Counted from the first letter of the stretch, positions 4,583 to 15,397 are shown. The stretch is DNA of 64,000 nucleotides from an uncultured Bacteroidota bacterium (GCA_963727705.1 CAVSHK010000042.1:7552-71551); one strand, 5' to 3'. Numbers and translations are program-made. Notes: a model not told the origin generated them from the letters alone.

Positions 4583-5350
4583 TTAAGCAGCAGACCAACC
4601 GCCGTCCATTGGTATAGCAGAACCGGTAATCATAGAAGCGTGTCCCGAAGCAAGAAACAATGCTAATGCCCCTATTGATTCGGCACTCACAAATTCTTTA
4701 ATGGGGTGCTTTGCAAGCATAATTTTATTAATTACTTCTGCTTCCGGAATATTATGTGATTTCGCTTGCTCGGTGATTTGTTTTTCAACCAATGGTGTTT
4801 TAACATAACCCGGACAAATAGCGTTTGCTGTTATTCCCAATGTAGCCCCTTCAAGTGCCAATACTTTTGTTAAGCCAATGATGCCATGCTTTGCAGCTAC
4901 ATATGCCGATTTGAATTCGGAAGCAACCAGTCCATGAACGGAAGAAATATTGATGATTCTGCCCGACTTGTTTTCTTTCATGCCTTTCCACACCGCTTTG
5001 GACGTATGAAATGCAGATGATAAGTTAATGCCAATAATGTCATTCCATTTTTCTGTTGGAAAATCTTCAATGGGTGAAACAAATTGAATTCCCGCATTGT
5101 TTATCAATACATCAATACTTCCCATTTTAGCAATTCCTTCATCAACCATTTTTATTATTTCAGCAGGTTGAAGCATATTAGCTGCAGAATACATTGTTTC
5201 TACATTGTATTGTTTACTAATATCTTTTGCTATTTCAGGCCCTTCTTTTTCTAGTCCGTTAAAAACAATATTATATCCTGATTTAGCAAATTCCTTTGCA
5301 ATACCCAATCCCACACCACTTGTACTTCCTGTTATTAAAACGGTCTTCAT
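4583..5350 (-). CDS. bdhA: D-3-hydroxybutyrate dehydrogenase (SDR)
   Basis: TGSTSGVG, NNAGIQFVSPIEDFP.EKW, SVHGLVAS.FKSAYVAAKHG, CPGYV.TPLV.KQI, DGGW. Confidence 0.9.
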   Translation of the reverse strand: MKTVLITGSTSGVGLGIAKEFAKSGYNIVFNGLEKEGPEIAKDISKQYNVETMYSAANMLQPAEIIKMVDEGIAKMGSIDVLINNAGIQFVSPIEDFPTEKWNDIIGINLSSAFHTSKAVWKGMKENKSGRIINISSVHGLVASEFKSAYVAAKHGIIGLTKVLALEGATLGITANAICPGYVKTPLVEKQITEQAKSHNIPEAEVINKIMLAKHPIKEFVSAESIGALALFLASGHASMITGSAIPMDGGWSAA

Positions 5351-5363
5351 AATTTTAATTTTA

Positions 5364-6164
5364 TTAATGCTCTATAAATTCAGTTATCAATTTTGTAATT
5401 TGAGGAATTGCTTCCAAATTAAGCGTATGGCCAACTCCTGCTACCACCTCCAAAGTGCTTCCCGGTATTGCATCAGCAACCTCCTGTGCCATGTGTACCG
5501 GAAACAACACATCTTTTTCTCCCTGAATAACCAGTGTTGGATTTTGTATTCCTTTTAATTTTGGACGATAATCAGGTCGTTGTGCAGTGGCAGTCATTAA
5601 TTTTCTGAGAGCCGTTACATCCGTATTTTGAGTTTGTTTGGCGGATTTAAGCGTATCAATAGGAATGAGCGGATTTGAAAAATACATTTCGCCTAATACA
5701 GTAGGTAACATTACATCAAACATATGTGCATAACCTCCCATGTTTAAAGAGTTAAGCCAGGCCACAGAAATTGCTTCAGTATAAGGGGTTTTATGAGCAA
5801 ATGTGGATAGCAATATCAATTTATTTATTTTATCGGGATAATTAACAGCCATGTTTTGCGCAACCAAACTTCCGTAAGATAATCCTGCCACATTTATTTT
5901 TTTAATAGTTAAGGCTTCTATCAAGCCTATTATATCCGCTGCGTGTTGGTCAAAATCGCGCACATCTCCGGTTTTGTCGGACTGTCCCTGAAAGATAAAA
6001 TCACATAAAACTATTTTATACTCTTTAGCAAAAGCAGGCAGCATAAAATACCAGGCGGCTGTAGATTGGGATAATCCATTTAAAAAAATAACAGATCTAT
6101 CCGATTGAAGATTGCCATGCACCTCATAATATAAATTTCGGTTGTCAGCAGTTGTATGAAACAT
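5364..6164 (-). CDS. alpha/beta hydrolase (candidate 3HB-oligomer hydrolase / intracellular PHA depolymerase)
   Basis: GLSYG nucleophile elbow, GEKD acid, GH base; located between phaB and bdhA. Confidence 0.75.
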   Translation of the reverse strand: MFHTTADNRNLYYEVHGNLQSDRSVIFLNGLSQSTAAWYFMLPAFAKEYKIVLCDFIFQGQSDKTGDVRDFDQHAADIIGLIEALTIKKINVAGLSYGSLVAQNMAVNYPDKINKLILLSTFAHKTPYTEAISVAWLNSLNMGGYAHMFDVMLPTVLGEMYFSNPLIPIDTLKSAKQTQNTDVTALRKLMTATAQRPDYRPKLKGIQNPTLVIQGEKDVLFPVHMAQEVADAIPGSTLEVVAGVGHTLNLEAIPQITKLITEFIEH

Positions 6165-6205: not shown

Positions 6206-6973
6206 TTAAAACATATGTTGTCCGCCATTAATAGCGATATTGGCTCCTGTAATAAAATCAGCATCTGTTGACGCTAAGTAAGCAACAGCACCTGCAATTT
6301 CAGCAGGATGTCCTAAACGCCCTACAGGAATTTGTTCAATAATTTTATTACGTATTTCTTCTTTTACGGCCATTACCATAGCAGTGGCTGTATATCCGGG
6401 AGAAACGGTATTTACAGTAATTCCTTTTTTTGCCACCTCTAAGGCCAGCGATTTTGAAAAACCGTACATCGCTGCTTTTGTTGCTGCATAATTCGTTTGT
6501 CCGAATTGTCCCTTTTGCCCGTTAATGGAAGATATATTGATTACGCGCCCCCACCCTTTTGCAATCATGCCTTCTATTACCAAACGGGTACAAATAAATA
6601 CACTGTTAAGATTGGTATCTATTACTTCGTACCATTGTTGAGGAGTCATTTTATGAAGAGCTGAATCCCTTGTAATTCCGGCATTATTTACCAAAATATC
6701 CACCGTTCCTATTTCTTCTGTTATCTGCTTTATCATTTTTTCAGCAGATTTAAAGTTAGAAATATCACCTGAAACAATTTTCAAATCAAAACCCATTTTT
6801 AGTTGGTCATCTCGCCAAGCCTTTGCTTCTTCCCTCCATTTCATGGCATTGGTAAAGTTTCTGTAATTGGCAACAACGGTGTATCCATCCTTATATAAAC
6901 GCTCGCAAATAGCCGTTCCTATTCCACCCGTTCCGCCTGTAATTAAAGCTACCTTATTGTTTTTTTGTATCAT
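6206..6973 (-). CDS. phaB: acetoacetyl-CoA reductase
   Basis: TGGTGGIGTAIC.RL, NNAGITRD, INISSINGQKGQFGQTNYAATKA, SPGY..T.MV, NGGQHM. Confidence 0.93.
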   Translation of the reverse strand: MIQKNNKVALITGGTGGIGTAICERLYKDGYTVVANYRNFTNAMKWREEAKAWRDDQLKMGFDLKIVSGDISNFKSAEKMIKQITEEIGTVDILVNNAGITRDSALHKMTPQQWYEVIDTNLNSVFICTRLVIEGMIAKGWGRVINISSINGQKGQFGQTNYAATKAAMYGFSKSLALEVAKKGITVNTVSPGYTATAMVMAVKEEIRNKIIEQIPVGRLGHPAEIAGAVAYLASTDADFITGANIAINGGQHMF

Positions 6974-6992: not shown

Positions 6993-8816
6993 TTATTTTT
7001 TTACAACGGAGGTGTTTTCATTTGGCATATACACGATCGATTTTTCTTTTACATATCTTCCCGGAGCAGGTTCAATCACTTTATATTTAGCATTGCCTAG
7101 TGTTTTAGCCGGAGCAATTTTTTTTCCTGATTTTTTGATCAAACGTTCGCTCCAAGGTGTCCACCAACTTCCATTATGAAACTTTGCCGTTTTTTGCCAA
7201 GCCTCAAATCCATTGTCTAATTCTCCATCAAGATAATAACCGTATTTTTTAGTTGTCGGAGCATTCGTTACTCCAATCACATGACCTGAACCTCCAAGTA
7301 TAAACTCAACGGGACCGCTCACCAATTCAGTAGTGGTGAACGTAGTATGTGCAGGTGATATATGGTCGTCACGCATACCTATAACGTAAACCGGAATTTC
7401 TATCTTACCAATATCTATTTGGGTATTACATATCCTCAAGGCATTTTTCCTGCTTAGTTTGTTTTCTAAAATCATATTCCTTAAATAATAAAGGTATGCG
7501 TTTGCAGGAAGGTTGGTATTATCGTTTGTCCAATATAAAACATCAAAAACAGGAGCTTGTTTTCCTTTTAAATAATTATTGACCACACAACTCCATATTA
7601 AGTCGTTTGCTCTTATTAAATTAAAAGCTGTTTCCATATCACGTCCTCGCATAACTCCCATTTGTGAAAGTTCTCCTCGCTCTAATTTTTTCACCAATGC
7701 ATTGTCAATTACACCGCCCATTGGACCAATATCAGAGAAATCAAGCATAGATGCAAGAAATGTGGCCGTATTCACCGGATTTTCCTCTTTACTTTTACGC
7801 TTAGCAAGTATTGCAAGTGTTACGCTTACAATTGTTCCTCCCAAACAATTGCCCAATACATTTATTTTTTGGGCCTTTGTTATGGCTTGTATCACCTCTA
7901 TAGCTTTTAATGTACCTTTTTCTATATAGTCATCAAAAGCTGTTATTCCCATATCGGCGGTAGAATTTTTCCAGGAGATCATAAACGTAGTGAATCCCTG
8001 ATCAACCGAAAATTTTGCCAACGAATTTTCAGGGCGTAAATCAAGTAAATAAAATTTATTAATTAAGGCCGGTACCATTAGCAATGGTATTTCATAAACC
8101 GTTTTTGTAGAAGGCGAATATTGGATTAACTGCATTAATTCATTTTCAAAAATAACCGCACCCTCAGTAATTGCAAGATTAACGCCCACTTCAAACTTCG
8201 ATTCATCCGTTTGACTTATTTTTCCTCTTTGAATATCTTCTAATAAATTTTTATATCCATCCATCAAACTTTGCCCATTTGTTTGTTGTGCTAATTTAAG
8301 AGCTTCAGGATTGGTAATAACAAAATTAGAAGGTGATAAGGCATCAATATATTGTTTAGTATAAAAGTTCAATTTTTTCTTTGTGTCATAGTCCATATCT
8401 ACAACATCAATTATTTCTGTCATCAGTTGCGACACCAGTAAATAACTCTGTTTAACAAAATCAAAATAATAAGGCGCTTCGTCCCATTCAGGAGCCCTAA
8501 AGCGCTTGTCATTGGCTGCCGGCGTAATAACAGGCTTATATTCCTTCGTAACATTTAACTGACGCTCGGTAATTCGTTTCCATAATTCCTGCTGATCACT
8601 AATAAATTTTTTAAAAAGCGGATGAACCTTCGAAAGCTGATCAGGTTCAATCATTAATTTGGTAGTTAAATCACTATAGGTATCAGCAATATCTCTATTA
8701 TCATGCTCATAACCCGATTTATTTTCAAGATAATTTTGAATTATTTTTTGACTTGCTTTTGTAATATTATCAGCCAGTTCCTTTAAATTTTCTACCCCTT
8801 TATTTTCCATAGTCAT
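6993..8816 (-). CDS. phaC: class I polyhydroxyalkanoate synthase
   Basis: DKRF..PEW, ALSPSNF..TNPE, F.VGVNLA.T.G.V.FENELMQLIQY, INKFY.LDL.PENS, lipase box GNCLGG, catalytic Asp (DDHI) and His (SGH), GSWW..W, APGRYV; 607 aa. Confidence 0.95.
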   Translation of the reverse strand: MTMENKGVENLKELADNITKASQKIIQNYLENKSGYEHDNRDIADTYSDLTTKLMIEPDQLSKVHPLFKKFISDQQELWKRITERQLNVTKEYKPVITPAANDKRFRAPEWDEAPYYFDFVKQSYLLVSQLMTEIIDVVDMDYDTKKKLNFYTKQYIDALSPSNFVITNPEALKLAQQTNGQSLMDGYKNLLEDIQRGKISQTDESKFEVGVNLAITEGAVIFENELMQLIQYSPSTKTVYEIPLLMVPALINKFYLLDLRPENSLAKFSVDQGFTTFMISWKNSTADMGITAFDDYIEKGTLKAIEVIQAITKAQKINVLGNCLGGTIVSVTLAILAKRKSKEENPVNTATFLASMLDFSDIGPMGGVIDNALVKKLERGELSQMGVMRGRDMETAFNLIRANDLIWSCVVNNYLKGKQAPVFDVLYWTNDNTNLPANAYLYYLRNMILENKLSRKNALRICNTQIDIGKIEIPVYVIGMRDDHISPAHTTFTTTELVSGPVEFILGGSGHVIGVTNAPTTKKYGYYLDGELDNGFEAWQKTAKFHNGSWWTPWSERLIKKSGKKIAPAKTLGNAKYKVIEPAPGRYVKEKSIVYMPNENTSVVKK

Positions 8817-8883
8817 TAATTGGCTTGCGTATGAATATTTTCAAATGTAATTGTGTATTTCCGTGTAATTCGTGTACAATAAT

Positions 8884-8926
8884 AAAAAAAATAACCCCGC
8901 AGATTCATTAAAATCTGCAAGATTAT
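8884..8926 (-). terminator. intrinsic terminator between the phasin-like genes and phaC
   Basis: Minus strand ATAATCTTGCAGATT-loop-AATCTGCGGGGTTAT (15-bp stem with G-U pairs) followed by a T run. Confidence 0.65.
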
Positions 8927-9009: not shown

Positions 9010-9606
9010 TTATTTTTTCGCTTTCGCATCTTCTTTCCACCATTCAGATGCCCATCCTGCAAACTTTTCCAAACCTTTACCTTGTATTTTAAACAACGAT
9101 TCTATTTGAGAATTAATATTTTCCCCGAATTTTTGGTTAAAATTCACAGCAAGATTGGTGTGTTTGTTATAGAAATCTAATATTTCCTTTGTGTTTTCAG
9201 TTGTTAGTTTATGAGACGCTTCAAAATTTTCACGTATCAATTCCAACACTTTTTCAGGATGCTCTGTTTTAGATTCCTTTAATGCATCTACTAACTTCGT
9301 ATTAAAGTCCACATTCATTTCCATTTGTCTGGTATACGAATTGATTATGCTGTCAAGTGCATCTTCAGCAAGCTCAACCGATTTTCCGAATGCTTCTTTA
9401 ACATTATCGGTAATCGCATCATCTACTTCACCCTGATTAAATTTAGCTTTTATTGAATCTACAATTTTTTTGTTAGAGTCTATAGCCTCTCCAACGTGTT
9501 TTTTGTTTGAATCAATAAATTCTTTTATCGTGTCTTTCGATTTTTCAGCAGATCCCTTTATCGTGTTTTTTATTTTTTCAGCCTTGTCATTTAGTGTTGT
9601 GTCCAT
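9010..9606 (-). CDS. hypothetical all-helical protein, putative phasin
   Basis: 198 aa, no Cys, amphipathic helical periodicity, Trp-rich basic C-tail; directly upstream of phaC. Confidence 0.6.
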   Translation of the reverse strand: MDTTLNDKAEKIKNTIKGSAEKSKDTIKEFIDSNKKHVGEAIDSNKKIVDSIKAKFNQGEVDDAITDNVKEAFGKSVELAEDALDSIINSYTRQMEMNVDFNTKLVDALKESKTEHPEKVLELIRENFEASHKLTTENTKEILDFYNKHTNLAVNFNQKFGENINSQIESLFKIQGKGLEKFAGWASEWWKEDAKAKK

Positions 9607-9655
9607 ATCCTAAGATTTTTTAAAACATCAATAATTATTTATTAATACGCTTATT

Positions 9656-10396
9656 TTAGTTGGAGCCAACACCTTGTTTTTTTGTAGTTAAACTACCATT
9701 TAAACTTGCTTTTGCCGGCTCATTAACACTTTGTTCGGTTTCTTTGGTTGCAACAGGTATACTCAATAAATCTTTCCATGCTTTAATGTTAGCAGTAATT
9801 CCTGCATTCACCTGAACAATTAATTTATCCAATATTTCCTTGTTAGCTTCAACTGCTGATACAGCAAAATCAGCATACGATTTAGTGATCGCTTCAATGG
9901 ACTGTTTCGATGAATCAAGATTAGCATCTAATTCTTTTTTAAAATTTCCTGTTAAAGGAGAAAAGGACGATTTAGTAATATCAAATTGTTTAACAATGGT
10001 ATCGAACGATTGCTGATTAAGCTTGGTCAATTCCTCCACTTGTTTGTTATAAACATCAAACACTTCCTTTACATCTTTTGAAACAGCTCCCATATCGCCT
10101 TGTTTACCAAGTTCTGCAATTTTTTTCATTGCTGCTTTTGATATGTTCGATAAAGTTTCTGCATTTTTTTGCATTTCATCAATGATCGTTTTTCCTGAAA
10201 CGCCAAAATCTACATTGGCTTTTCCATCAGCTTGTATTGAATTAATCGCTTTGTTATAAAGCTCATTCGCTACTTTTATTTGTTTGTTTTGAGTTTCAAT
10301 AAATGCAGCATTCGCATTTTGAAACCATTTGATGCCCTTGTCTACATTCTCTTTGAATGTTTCGGCAACTGCTGAAGTTGTTTTGTCTGTTGTCAT
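9656..10396 (-). CDS. hypothetical all-helical protein, putative phasin
   Basis: 246 aa, A/K/N/Q-rich amphipathic helices, low-complexity tail; first gene of the pha unit. Confidence 0.55.
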   Translation of the reverse strand: MTTDKTTSAVAETFKENVDKGIKWFQNANAAFIETQNKQIKVANELYNKAINSIQADGKANVDFGVSGKTIIDEMQKNAETLSNISKAAMKKIAELGKQGDMGAVSKDVKEVFDVYNKQVEELTKLNQQSFDTIVKQFDITKSSFSPLTGNFKKELDANLDSSKQSIEAITKSYADFAVSAVEANKEILDKLIVQVNAGITANIKAWKDLLSIPVATKETEQSVNEPAKASLNGSLTTKKQGVGSN

Positions 10397-10929
10397 TGTT
10401 TTTTTGATTTTAGATTAATACTATTATATACCGGACTAATTAATATACAAATTCAATAAAATTGCTAAGCGAATTGTTTCCTCAAAAGTAATACAATTAC
10501 AATCGCAAACACACAAATTGTTAATAACTTTATTGTAAAAATTGTTAATTTAATTTCAATTATCATTTTTATTTATTTAAAATCCGAGCATTTTTATTTT
10601 ATGCTTGTTTCCTTATTTTTGGAGTTTCCATTCTACAAAATCTCATCCTGTTTTATTTGGATTTTTCAGAATTATAAATGAACGAAACATATATGAACAC
10701 AGTATTACGCGTATATCAATAAACTATTAAATGATGTGATCACAAATAAAACAAAGAACGTTTTACCAATTTTATTTTATAATTATTTATTAATTTGCAA
10801 ACTAAAATATTATTAAGGTATTTACACTATGCAAATCAGGTTTGAATAAAAAAAACAAAAACAAGCAATTTTCATATAAAAACCTGCTTTTGCGGTATCA
10901 AATGTATATCAATATGGTTTAAATTTTAA

Positions 10930-10966
10930 TGATATTAATCATCTTCATGACGTGATTTGCATCACA
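10930..10966. promoter_or_regulatory. tandem CRP/FNR-type boxes upstream of the patatin gene
   Basis: TGAT-ATTA-ATCA (10930-10941) and TGAT-TTGC-ATCA (10953-10964, within CGTGA-N6-TCACA); -7-like TACCTTTA at 11023-11030. Confidence 0.55.
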
Positions 10967-11080
10967 ACTCATCTCATTAACAAAAATTAAAGATTAAATA
11001 TTAACCTTTCGTTCAAAAAAAATACCTTTACGCTCGTCAAATAATCATAACAATTCAATAAACCTCTTTAAATTTTTATT

Positions 11081-12091
11081 ATGCAGAAAAAAAAAATAGC
11101 ATTGGCATTGCAAGGTGGAGGGTCGCACGGAGCTTATACCTGGGGAATTTTGGAACGTTTATTAGAAGAGGATAAATTTGACATCAGAGGCATTTGTGGG
11201 ACAAGTGCCGGAGCCATGAATGGCGCTATTGCCACCTACGGGTTACACACCAGCGGTAAACAAGGTGCTATTGATTTGCTGGAAAAATTTTGGAAACGAA
11301 TAGCCCAAAGTGGAGCTTTTTCACCTATGAAATCAAGCTGGATGGATCACAGTCTCCACCCTGGAGGGCTTGATTACTCGCCCGGATACCAGTTTTTCAA
11401 CTATTTAACATCGGTTTTTTCACCTTATGATTTAAATCCATTGGATATAAATCCAATCAAAGACATTTTACTGGAGTTAATTGATTTTAACGAGTTAAAA
11501 AAAAGTGACACACAATTATTTGTAAGTGCTACGAATGTTAAAACCTGCAAACCAAAGGTATTTAATCTTTCAGAAATGAATGTTGATGCATTGCTTGCTT
11601 CCAGTTGTTTGCCATTAATGTTTAAGGCTGTTGAAATTAACGGTGAATTTTACTGGGATGGAGGATATATGGGTAACCCTCCTATATATCCACTTATTGA
11701 TGTGAACAATGCCGATGACATTTTAATTATTCAAGTAAATACGATGAATATAAATGAAGTACCAAAAACGATAAAGGATATTAACGACCGTATTAATGAA
11801 ATTAGTTTTAATAATAGTTTAATGGCCGAAATGCGTATGGTTTACTTTAAAGAAAAAATATTGAATATTGGTTATGACTTAAGAGGACGCTTACGCAAAA
11901 TATATTTTCATAGAATCAGTGCTGATACCATTTTAGATGATTTAACACTGTCCAGCAAATTTAATGTTGCATGGCACTTTTTAAATGATTTGCGCCAGAG
12001 AGGCAGAACTGTTGCAGAAAAATGGCTTGCAGAAGAATCACATCATGTCGGACACAAATCTTCATTTGATATCAAAAAGGTTTTCTTATAG
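11081..12091 (+). CDS. patatin-like phospholipase family protein (candidate PHA depolymerase)
   Basis: GGGSHG oxyanion loop, GTSAG nucleophile, YWDGGY.GNP. Confidence 0.88.
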   Translation: MQKKKIALALQGGGSHGAYTWGILERLLEEDKFDIRGICGTSAGAMNGAIATYGLHTSGKQGAIDLLEKFWKRIAQSGAFSPMKSSWMDHSLHPGGLDYSPGYQFFNYLTSVFSPYDLNPLDINPIKDILLELIDFNELKKSDTQLFVSATNVKTCKPKVFNLSEMNVDALLASSCLPLMFKAVEINGEFYWDGGYMGNPPIYPLIDVNNADDILIIQVNTMNINEVPKTIKDINDRINEISFNNSLMAEMRMVYFKEKILNIGYDLRGRLRKIYFHRISADTILDDLTLSSKFNVAWHFLNDLRQRGRTVAEKWLAEESHHVGHKSSFDIKKVFL

Positions 12092-14217: not shown

Positions 14218-15397
14218 TTAGTTTAATAATTCAAAAATACCTGTAGCACCTTGTCCTGTACCAACGCACATTGTAACCATTCCGTACTTTTGTTTTCTTC
14301 TGCGCATTTCATTTAACAGCTGAACGGTTAATTTAGCACCTGTACAACCCAATGGATGTCCTAATGATATTGCACCACCGTTTACATTTACTTTCTCAGG
14401 ATTAATGCCTAATTCTCTAATAATAGCTACTGATTGAGATGCAAATGCTTCATTCAATTCAATTTGGTCAATTTGATCCAATGTCATTCCCGCTTGTTTC
14501 AATGCTTTTGGAATTGAATAAATTGGTCCGATACCCATGATACGAGGAGGAACACCTGCAACGGCATATGTTACTAAACGCGCAATTGGTTTTAAGTTAT
14601 GTGCCTCTAAGAATTTTTTGTTGCAAATCATTACAAATGCAGCACCGTCGGATGTTTGCGAAGAATTACCCGCAGTAACACTACCTCCTTGGGCAAACAC
14701 CGGTTTTAGTTTTGCCAAAGCGTCTAATGTTGTACCTGCTCTTGGTCCTTCATCGGTATCAAAAACGAACTCTCTTGTTTTTTTCTTTTCGTTTTCATCT
14801 AAGTATGTTTCTGTAACAGTTATGGGAGCAATATCGTCCTTAAATGTACCGTCAGCAATAGCTTTTAACGATTTTTCATGCGACTTCACTGCAAATGCAT
14901 CTTGCTCCTCGCGAGAAACTTTATACTCACTTGCAACAGCCTCTGCTGTTAAACCCATGCTCCAATACTCGGTTCTGTCAGATTTTGCAATATTCAGGAT
15001 CCGGTGCAACTTTCCATCCGCTGAATGGAAGTAAACTCATTGACTCAACTCCACCGGCTATGATACAATCAGCCATTCCTGAGTTGATTTTTGCCGAAGC
15101 AATGGCGATGGTATCTAAACCGGAAGAACAAAAACGGTTAACGGTTTCACCCGGAACTTTATCCACTCCTAAGCCTTGAAGGGCAAGGTGTCTTCCCATG
15201 TTTAAGCCTTGTTCAGCTTCTGGATTAGAACAACCAACAATTAGGTCGTCAATTTCCTCCGGTTTAACATTTGGAACATTTTTCATTAAATGTTTAATTA
15301 CCTGAGCTCCCAACTCTGTAGGAAAGGTGCTCTTAAGAGAGCCTTTTCCGGCTTTTCCTATCGCACTTCTGTAACCTGCTACTATATATGCATCCAT
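14218..15397 (-). CDS. fadA: acetyl-CoA C-acyltransferase (thiolase), split by a +1 frameshift near 14992
   Basis: N-half has NRFCSSGL and AGGVESMS; C-half has [17 protein letters not shown] and TMCVGTGQG. Removing one base at GAA-T-ATT joins the two ORFs. Confidence 0.9.

Follow-up and report, generated by a model that had tools for sequence, protein, structure and literature searches.

What is the function of the two unannotated genes that head the polyhydroxyalkanoate (PHA) gene cluster in a 64,000-nucleotide stretch of DNA from an uncultured Bacteroidota bacterium (GCA_963727705.1, CAVSHK010000042.1:7552-71551)? Within this stretch, which is referred to as the window and whose positions are counted from its first letter, both genes are located on the minus strand upstream of the PHA synthase gene phaC. 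They encode proteins of 246 amino acids (aa; 9656..10396) and 198 aa (9010..9606), named LONG and SHORT in the following. The original prediction, made from the sequence of the window, regarded the pair as a candidate new family of phasins or, alternatively, as a synthase partner of the PhaE/PhaM type. Computational analysis shows that the genes are real and paralogous, that their products are helical and amphipathic, and that they are tied to PHA synthase by position and by phyletic pattern. It is likely that LONG and SHORT are paralogous proteins associated with PHA (polyhydroxybutyrate, PHB) granules and that they work like phasins. As judged from sequence, they represent an unnamed, lineage-restricted, duplicated and phasin-like family, for which homology to the known phasins is not demonstrated.

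One duplicated family of amphipathic proteins

The first point to settle is whether the two open reading frames (ORFs) are genes at all. In a first database search, 268 proteins were retrieved for SHORT and 8 for LONG at E ≤ 0.001, and the comparison of a LONG profile with 1.84 billion cluster representatives resulted in 253 matches at E ≤ 1e-3, with 168 of them at E ≤ 1e-10 and 49 at E ≤ 1e-30. These homologs show that LONG and SHORT are more than chance ORFs. The best 120 of the SHORT homologs are 69–100% identical, and the names found in the sources are either 'hypothetical protein' or automatic names that are mutually inconsistent.

Direct comparison of LONG with SHORT by BLASTP is marginal (23% over 102 residues), and hhalign gave a probability of 38% for the first, narrow alignments of both proteins. 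This value was superseded when alignments of diverse members from related genomes were used (A3, 27 LONG sequences; A4, 38 SHORT sequences): A4 against A3 yielded a probability of 98.6% (E 9.4e-16) over 183 columns, i.e., over almost the full length, showing that LONG and SHORT are paralogs of one family. Moreover, the LONG and SHORT profiles each match genes of the other family in genome searches. The original view of two unannotated proteins therefore holds for the pair as such, but they are paralogs and not two separate inventions. SHORT is characterized by two near-invariant motifs, FYNKHTNLA.NFN and a C-terminal WASEWWK, in which the residues W189 and W190 are nearly invariant.

As originally proposed, both proteins contain no cysteine and are predicted to be soluble. 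Their isoelectric points (SHORT 5.55; LONG 6.45) are acidic to neutral, their grand averages of hydropathy amount to -0.82 (SHORT) and -0.44 (LONG), and the peak Kyte-Doolittle means over 19 residues of 0.25 (SHORT) and 0.87 (LONG) show that neither protein has a membrane segment. The absence of a catalytic motif was likewise borne out, as no catalytic family of Pfam or NCBIfam reaches its cut-off for LONG or SHORT. The proposed amphipathic patterning is pronounced: the mean helical hydrophobic moment, calculated in 18-aa windows at 100 degrees, is 0.383 for SHORT compared to 0.210 ± 0.026 in 500 shuffles (z 6.6) and 0.345 for LONG compared to 0.198 ± 0.022 (z 6.7), and the angular spectrum of the moment is maximal at 100 degrees. 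The AlphaFold2 models are all-helical. SHORT is modelled with three long amphipathic helices (residues 2-57, 63-111 and 117-196) at a predicted local distance difference test score (pLDDT) of 67.4, i.e., with low confidence, and LONG with five amphipathic helices followed by a variable C-terminal tail (residues 214-246) of low confidence (pLDDT 56.4).

The family is present in several copies per genome, with full-length copies at six places in one related genome (G179) and at eight in another (G198). The genome of the window itself (G000) encodes, next to the pair, a cluster of thiolase, LONG (225 aa) and SHORT (211 aa) on contig C23 (C23:41847-43313; L068), a LONG gene (222 aa) followed by a short-chain dehydrogenase/reductase gene and by phaC2, which is cut by the end of contig C11 (C11:41530-42198; L070), and a fragment of LONG where contig C2 ends (C2:76943-77670; L069). 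Some of the paralog matches in this genome span in-frame stop codons, and these extra paralogs might be explained by pseudogenes, by errors in the assembly or by variation between strains.

Association with the PHA synthase

If the family serves PHA storage, it is expected to follow the synthase. This was analysed in 301 genomes drawn from the same class as the window (Bacteroidia) and in 240 other genomes from the phylum; both surveys are samples. A full-length match to PF07167 (E < 1e-40, in frames of about 600 aa) was used as the criterion for class I PhaC. PF07167 matches 63 of the 301 class genomes, 30 of which carry a full-length class I PhaC; the 33 others show a partial match restricted to profile positions ~116-171, the last third of PhaC_N, in frames of ~350 aa. 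The SHORT profile detected 24 class genomes, all within the 30 with full-length class I PhaC, and a narrow LONG profile detected 18, all within these 24. A broad family profile built from 125 diverse LONG representatives (A5) matched 32 class genomes at E ≤ 1e-3 and 30 at E ≤ 1e-5, the latter comprising the 24 SHORT genomes, five class I genomes encoding mini homologs and one genome (G120) with a class III synthase. All of these 30 genomes carry a PHA synthase (29 class I, one class III PhaEC), which is the co-occurrence that had been suggested as a check and the opposite of homologs found mostly in genomes without phaC. Conversely, a family member is encoded in 29 of the 30 class I PhaC genomes. 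The remaining two A5 matches (E 8e-4 and 2.4e-4) lie inside frames of 469 aa and 516 aa in synthase-free genomes and look spurious. The association extends into genera in which presence is mixed (g1, 3/9 genomes; g5, 4/6; g8, 6/8), where SHORT and PhaC are found in the same genomes: 13 genomes contain both, 10 neither, and none is discordant.

The five class I genomes devoid of LONG and SHORT encode a stand-alone protein of 87-100 aa that matches both profiles (27-47 bits) and is not located beside phaC (L073:3774-4076, L074:4057-4320, L075:3747-4010, L076:3661-3924 and L077:376-669). This mini homolog resembles the family reduced to a single module. Sub-threshold Phasin_2 matches were observed in two of three mini homologs scanned.

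Regarding the genomes with a partial PF07167 match, the one that was checked (G120) encodes a class III PhaC next to PhaE (PF09712, 75.3 bits); on its contig C3, the synthase is preceded by this 477-aa PhaE (L079:2114-4688). In two other genomes (G038 and G082) a 451-aa frame beside a PhaC-like protein of ~350 aa gives a weak Phasin_2 match. Class III PhaEC seems to be widespread in Bacteroidia.

The phyletic pattern bears directly on the possibility that LONG and SHORT are general amphipathic-helix proteins, similar to apolipoproteins or perilipins, which would cover neutral-lipid bodies or membranes and would be only loosely linked to PHA. Such a role would be in line with PF01442, which is a recurrent weak match (LONG 26.3 bits; 11/27 and 12/125 members) and is joined by Perilipin_2 in 1/125 representatives, and with the structural comparison, in which a Foldseek search of the Protein Data Bank (PDB) with the SHORT model (pLDDT 67) gave nothing at E ≤ 0.001, all matches being helical bundles of a generic kind, BAR-like folds or designed proteins. 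When the two family profiles were run against the sequences of the PDB, nothing relevant emerged. However, the PF01442 scores are far below the cut-off of 90 bits (SHORT reaches 14.7 bits), and the family follows the PHA synthase genome by genome, including inside the three genera mentioned above. In the phylum sample, the family at E ≤ 1e-5 and class I PhaC were both found in 0/240 genomes, i.e., the family is not found in these genomes without synthase. Furthermore, all copies in the window's own genome with readable context adjoin genes of the PHB pathway. We regard a general lipid- or membrane-coating function as very improbable.

The gene order points in the same direction as the phyletic pattern. 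The gene downstream of the pair (6993..8816, minus strand) encodes a PHA synthase of 607 aa, which scores as class I (TIGR01838 636.8 bits, cut-off 622.65; PF07167 218.7 bits), in agreement with the original assignment of the pair to a position directly upstream of phaC. In 20 of 24 genomes, a SHORT gene immediately precedes phaC in the same orientation; of the remaining four, two have SHORT at a distance of 2.4 kb (G262) or 5 kb (G179) from phaC and two carry it on a different contig (G241 and G199). The order LONG-SHORT-phaC is found in 11 genomes, and SHORT-LONG-SHORT precedes phaC in four more. At eight loci, the identity to the window proteins is 39-71% for SHORT, and thereby tracks that of PhaC (48-69%), whereas LONG diverges to 22-41%.

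The close position, the conservation and the nearly invariant C-terminal Trp motif might suggest that the class I synthase of Bacteroidia has SHORT as its specific partner or activator, which would be either PhaM-like in function or a PhaE-like quasi-subunit, and that LONG alone forms the coat. In the ESM Atlas, whose results were used as leads only, a cluster named PHA_synth_III_E is found at 0.85. Nevertheless, the synthase scores as class I, and enzymes of this class are not known to require a second subunit. No match to PF09712 is among those listed for LONG or SHORT at E ≤ 1, compared to 75.3 bits for the true PhaE of the related genome. Moreover, up to eight copies per genome, many of them away from phaC, suit a coat better than a stoichiometric partner, and five class I genomes have only a mini homolog of 87-100 aa elsewhere. 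A prediction of the PhaC-SHORT complex resulted in a score of 0.00, which is evidence in neither direction. Taken together, SHORT is rather unlikely to act as a dedicated synthase partner, and the PhaE/PhaM part of the original prediction obtained no support, whereas its lineage-specific phasins are supported, with granule binding being the part that is inferred.

For LONG, the C-terminal tail deserves attention. Among 122 homologs, the tails are net positive in 90% (mean +2.5), in contrast to the helical body, which is acidic (mean -2.9). One of the two proteins might be a regulator or a granule-nucleoid tether resembling PhaR, PhaF or PhaM, LONG with its basic tail being the most plausible candidate, and the regulatory role would be unfilled otherwise, as the PhaR domain PF07879 has no match in the window's genome, which is 88.64% complete. 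Against this, the tail of the window protein has a net charge of only +1, the tails are unconserved in sequence and in length (5-82 aa), and PF05597 is without match. A regulator was rejected since no DNA-binding domain was detected with Pfam and NCBIfam, and regulation or tethering as the main function of one of the two proteins appears highly doubtful.

Expression signals and neighbouring genes

The spacers of the cluster were analysed for expression signals. LONG and SHORT are separated by 49 nucleotides (nt), SHORT and phaC by 193 nt. The latter spacer contains a terminator-like hairpin on the minus strand (8881..8926), composed of a 16-pair stem (8926..8891) followed by a T-run. With a folding free energy (dG) of -18.9 kcal/mol (z -6.69) it is more stable than all of 200 shuffles (0/200 as stable), which substantiates the intrinsic terminator that had been proposed at this site. 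A hairpin with dG ≤ -13 kcal/mol and a T-run is present in 10 of 19 SHORT-phaC spacers of other loci, the stem sequences being unrelated; of the other spacers, three are only 27-33 nt long and six are without a convincing hairpin. In one genome (G198:C50; L048:2122-2500) the spacer of 379 nt apparently contains a small extra reading frame and no terminator.

The -7 consensus of Bacteroidetes promoters is TAnnTTTG. A candidate box, TACTTTTG (10483..10490, minus strand), ends 86 nt upstream of the LONG start codon, and boxes ending 84-91 nt upstream of LONG are present in 4 of 10 loci. A second candidate, TACATTTG (8842..8849, minus strand), is located downstream of the terminator and ends 25 nt upstream of the phaC start. 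The consensus occurs in the SHORT-phaC spacer of 3 of 10 loci, the window included, and in the LONG-SHORT spacer of none, at a background rate of 0.84 per kb per strand. For codon usage, the reference set of the score comprised 20 ORFs from a single cluster of ribosomal-protein genes, and ranks were determined among 2823 crude longest-ORF calls. In their likeness to ribosomal-protein genes, LONG and SHORT rank at the 93rd and 88th percentile, phaC and phaB at the 45th and 47th; this bias is only about one standard deviation above the genome mean, which has to be added to the points against a granule function that are gathered below. These signals would fit, only modestly, a LONG-SHORT unit that is expressed above the synthase.

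Based on these data, the following mechanism is proposed. A promoter preceding LONG would drive the cotranscription of LONG and SHORT, and termination behind SHORT would lead to an excess of both proteins over PhaC, with phaC using start signals of its own. Both proteins, which are predicted to be cytoplasmic, non-enzymatic and to form long amphipathic helices, would settle with the hydrophobic sides of these helices on the polyester surface while the granule is being enlarged by the adjacent class I synthase. As its coat, they would determine how many granules form, how large these become and what their surface is like. In this pair, the constrained and conserved core component would be SHORT, which ends in the Trp-rich motif, and LONG would be a fast-evolving coat with a variable, mildly basic tail. 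We infer granule binding and abundance of the two proteins, as well as the roles of the Trp motif and of the tail.

A more elaborate form of this mechanism is a two-part granule organiser instead of two redundant coat proteins. SHORT, whose conservation keeps pace with that of PhaC and which carries the Trp motif at its C-terminus, would be dedicated to priming, activating or anchoring the class I synthase of Bacteroidia at the granule surface. The fast-evolving LONG would be the bulk coat, its basic, disordered tail tethering the granules to the nucleoid or to the membrane. We consider this version unlikely. If it were true, one duplicated helical module would accomplish in a new way what PhaM, PhaP and PhaF do in Proteobacteria, and this module would have no demonstrable homology to any of the three.

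Concerning the remaining genes of the unit, the order of transcription on the minus strand is LONG, SHORT, phaC, phaB, an alpha/beta hydrolase gene and a 3-hydroxybutyrate dehydrogenase gene. The acetoacetyl-CoA reductase gene phaB (6206..6973, minus strand) is assigned by TIGR01829 (361.8 bits, cut-off 302.1), the alpha/beta hydrolase (5364..6164, minus strand) by PF00561, and the 3-hydroxybutyrate dehydrogenase (4583..5350, minus strand) by TIGR01963 (349 bits, cut-off 307.05). The hydrolase shows a weak likeness to the model of intracellular short-chain-length PHA depolymerases (NF050089), which with 84.4 bits compared to the cut-off of 300 makes it a non-member.

Upstream of LONG, a gene for a patatin-like hydrolase is encoded divergently (11081..12091, plus strand; PF01734, 81.7 bits). 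The spacer between both genes (10397-11080) comprises 684 nt, includes a 500-nt stretch with a G+C content of 22.6% and is unusually long for a promoter region. Patatin homologs also adjoin SHORT copies at two other loci (L029:2916-3587 and L044:1-240, both minus strand). Judging by its title, a 2015 paper reportedly describes a granule-associated, patatin-like PHA depolymerase in Haloferax. Because of this enzyme and of the patatin homologs beside SHORT copies, the patatin-like gene is a candidate for an intracellular depolymerase, and it possibly belongs to the PHA unit.

Further upstream, a thiolase is encoded on the minus strand (14218-15397) in two overlapping ORFs, of which 14978-15397 (139 aa) corresponds to the N-terminal and 14218-15009 (263 aa) to the C-terminal part; either a frameshift or an indel from the assembly accounts for the split. 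Contig C38 of the same genome carries the ribosomal-protein cluster, in which EF-G is split and a secY-like ORF is fragmented. Together with the split thiolase this suggests indel errors in the assembly.

Relation to known phasins and other granule proteins

How close is the family to phasins that are already described? Neither LONG nor SHORT attains the cut-off of any model in Pfam or NCBIfam, so that the originally proposed new family stands as far as curated cut-offs are concerned; phasin models are nevertheless recurrent among the weak matches. In NCBIfam, both proteins have a phasin model as their best match (TIGR01985, E 6e-4; TIGR02809, E 5.8e-4), and TIGR01841 gives 14.2 bits for SHORT and 13.8 bits for LONG compared to a cut-off of 30.2. 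The Phasin_2 model PF09361 is found at E ≤ 0.1 in 19 of 27 LONG members, in which it is the top family, and in 19 of 38 SHORT members. Among the 125 diverse LONG representatives, 15 match it at E ≤ 1e-3, and every other family besides Apolipoprotein is matched by one. When 20 LONG homologs were scanned singly, one passed the PF09361 cut-off (29.9 compared to 24.9 bits) and another reached 23.7 bits. In the class sample, PF09361 is above its cut-off in 1/301 genomes, and this match is a LONG gene. In the ESM Atlas, both proteins are nearest to two unnamed Bacteroidota clusters; the closest named ones, again as leads, are PhaP_Bmeg (0.88), PHA_synth_III_E (0.85) and PHB_acc (0.80), besides a cluster automatically named 'Phasin family protein' (0.90).

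Several observations weigh against a phasin-like function, and part of them concern these very matches. For the window proteins themselves, PF09361 yields only 15.1 bits (SHORT) and 16.0 bits (LONG), with a cut-off of 24.9, and TIGR01985 20.3 bits with a cut-off of 99.7. VitK2_biosynth, an irrelevant family, leads the weak Pfam matches of SHORT (22/38) and thus ranks above Phasin_2, and Apolipoprotein is nearly as frequent as Phasin_2 in the LONG representatives (12 compared to 15 of 125). The PF09361 matches shift their register by 20-50 residues between orthologs: residues 31-129, 53-139, 65-149, 18-96, 12-94 and 66-141 overlap on roughly the same span of the profile, which fits a periodic amphipathic likeness better than homology. 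By hhalign, the probability of a relation to 27 PhaP2-type phasins of Cupriavidus (A6) is 1.8% for A3, 0.6% for A5 and 0.2% for A4, with a sensitivity that is limited by the narrow (template Neff 2.5) and Ala-rich A6 alignment. SHORT is about as conserved as PhaC, a degree of conservation not usually seen in coat proteins. Among the class I genomes, G233 (90% complete) is without a family member, as are 32 of the 33 genomes with the partial, class III-like PhaC_N, the exception being the LONG homolog of G120. Finally, related genomes in the samples are not independent, and the genome of the window is incomplete.

We attribute the likeness to phasins, which is a likeness of protein sequences, to a phasin-like periodicity of the helices; the comparisons speak neither clearly for nor clearly against a remote homology. 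The other phasin models point to a vacancy that the family might occupy: in the same incomplete genome, PF05597, PF09602 and PF09650 have no match at E ≤ 0.01, and PF09361 has none either. In these profile searches, canonical phasins are missing where the LONG/SHORT family is present.

PHA storage in Bacteroidota is little studied. Phasins are phylogenetically heterogeneous. A search of the full-text literature, with subscription journals largely outside its reach, found no paper in which a Bacteroidota (Bacteroidetes) phasin is described, and a 2017 phasin review does not contain the word Bacteroidetes (PMC5658603). As phasins, the family would fill this gap in Bacteroidota and give a name to hundreds of 'hypothetical proteins' (268 + 253 database entries). 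Moreover, it would mark PHA-storing Bacteroidota in metagenomes of freshwater, soil and wastewater and would offer PHA biotechnology new tags of amphipathic nature as well as surfactant proteins. The result overturns nothing and is no surprise in kind; it is a worthwhile annotation with a clear experimental target.

Among known systems, the synthase partners or activators PhaE (PF09712) and PhaM are likewise encoded beside the synthase, and the conservation of SHORT tracks that of PhaC. However, PhaE pairs with a class III PhaC of ~350 aa, whereas the synthase encoded here is a class I enzyme of 607 aa. We know of no model for PhaM in Pfam or NCBIfam. The exchangeable apolipoproteins and the perilipins (PF01442 and PF17316) also coat hydrophobic bodies with amphipathic helices and are recurrent weak matches, but these families are eukaryotic and, together with scores far below the cut-off, this leaves helix periodicity as the basis of the likeness.

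The tail of PhaF is rich in repeats and far more basic than +1, and in this feature the LONG protein of the window differs from it. PhaF/PhaI (PF05597), PhaP_Bmeg (PF09602) and PHA_gran_rgn (PF09650) are of the same functional kind as proposed for LONG and SHORT, although none of them matches the window's genome. Together with Phasin_2 (PF09361) they are the four phasin families of Pfam, all of which are predicted to be helical and amphipathic (PMC5658603). The closest counterpart is Phasin_2 itself (PF09361/TIGR01841; PhaP2 of Cupriavidus necator H16), whose members are likewise small, non-enzymatic, helical, amphipathic, present in multiple copies and encoded near pha genes. It differs in that the window proteins score below its cut-off, match in inconsistent registers and align at low hhalign probability, and in that FYNKHTNLA.NFN and WASEWWK have no counterpart in the PhaP2 alignment. 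As in the phasin class in general, both LONG and SHORT are small, non-enzymatic proteins with predicted amphipathic alpha-helices, and their genes are linked to a PHA synthase and co-occur with it.

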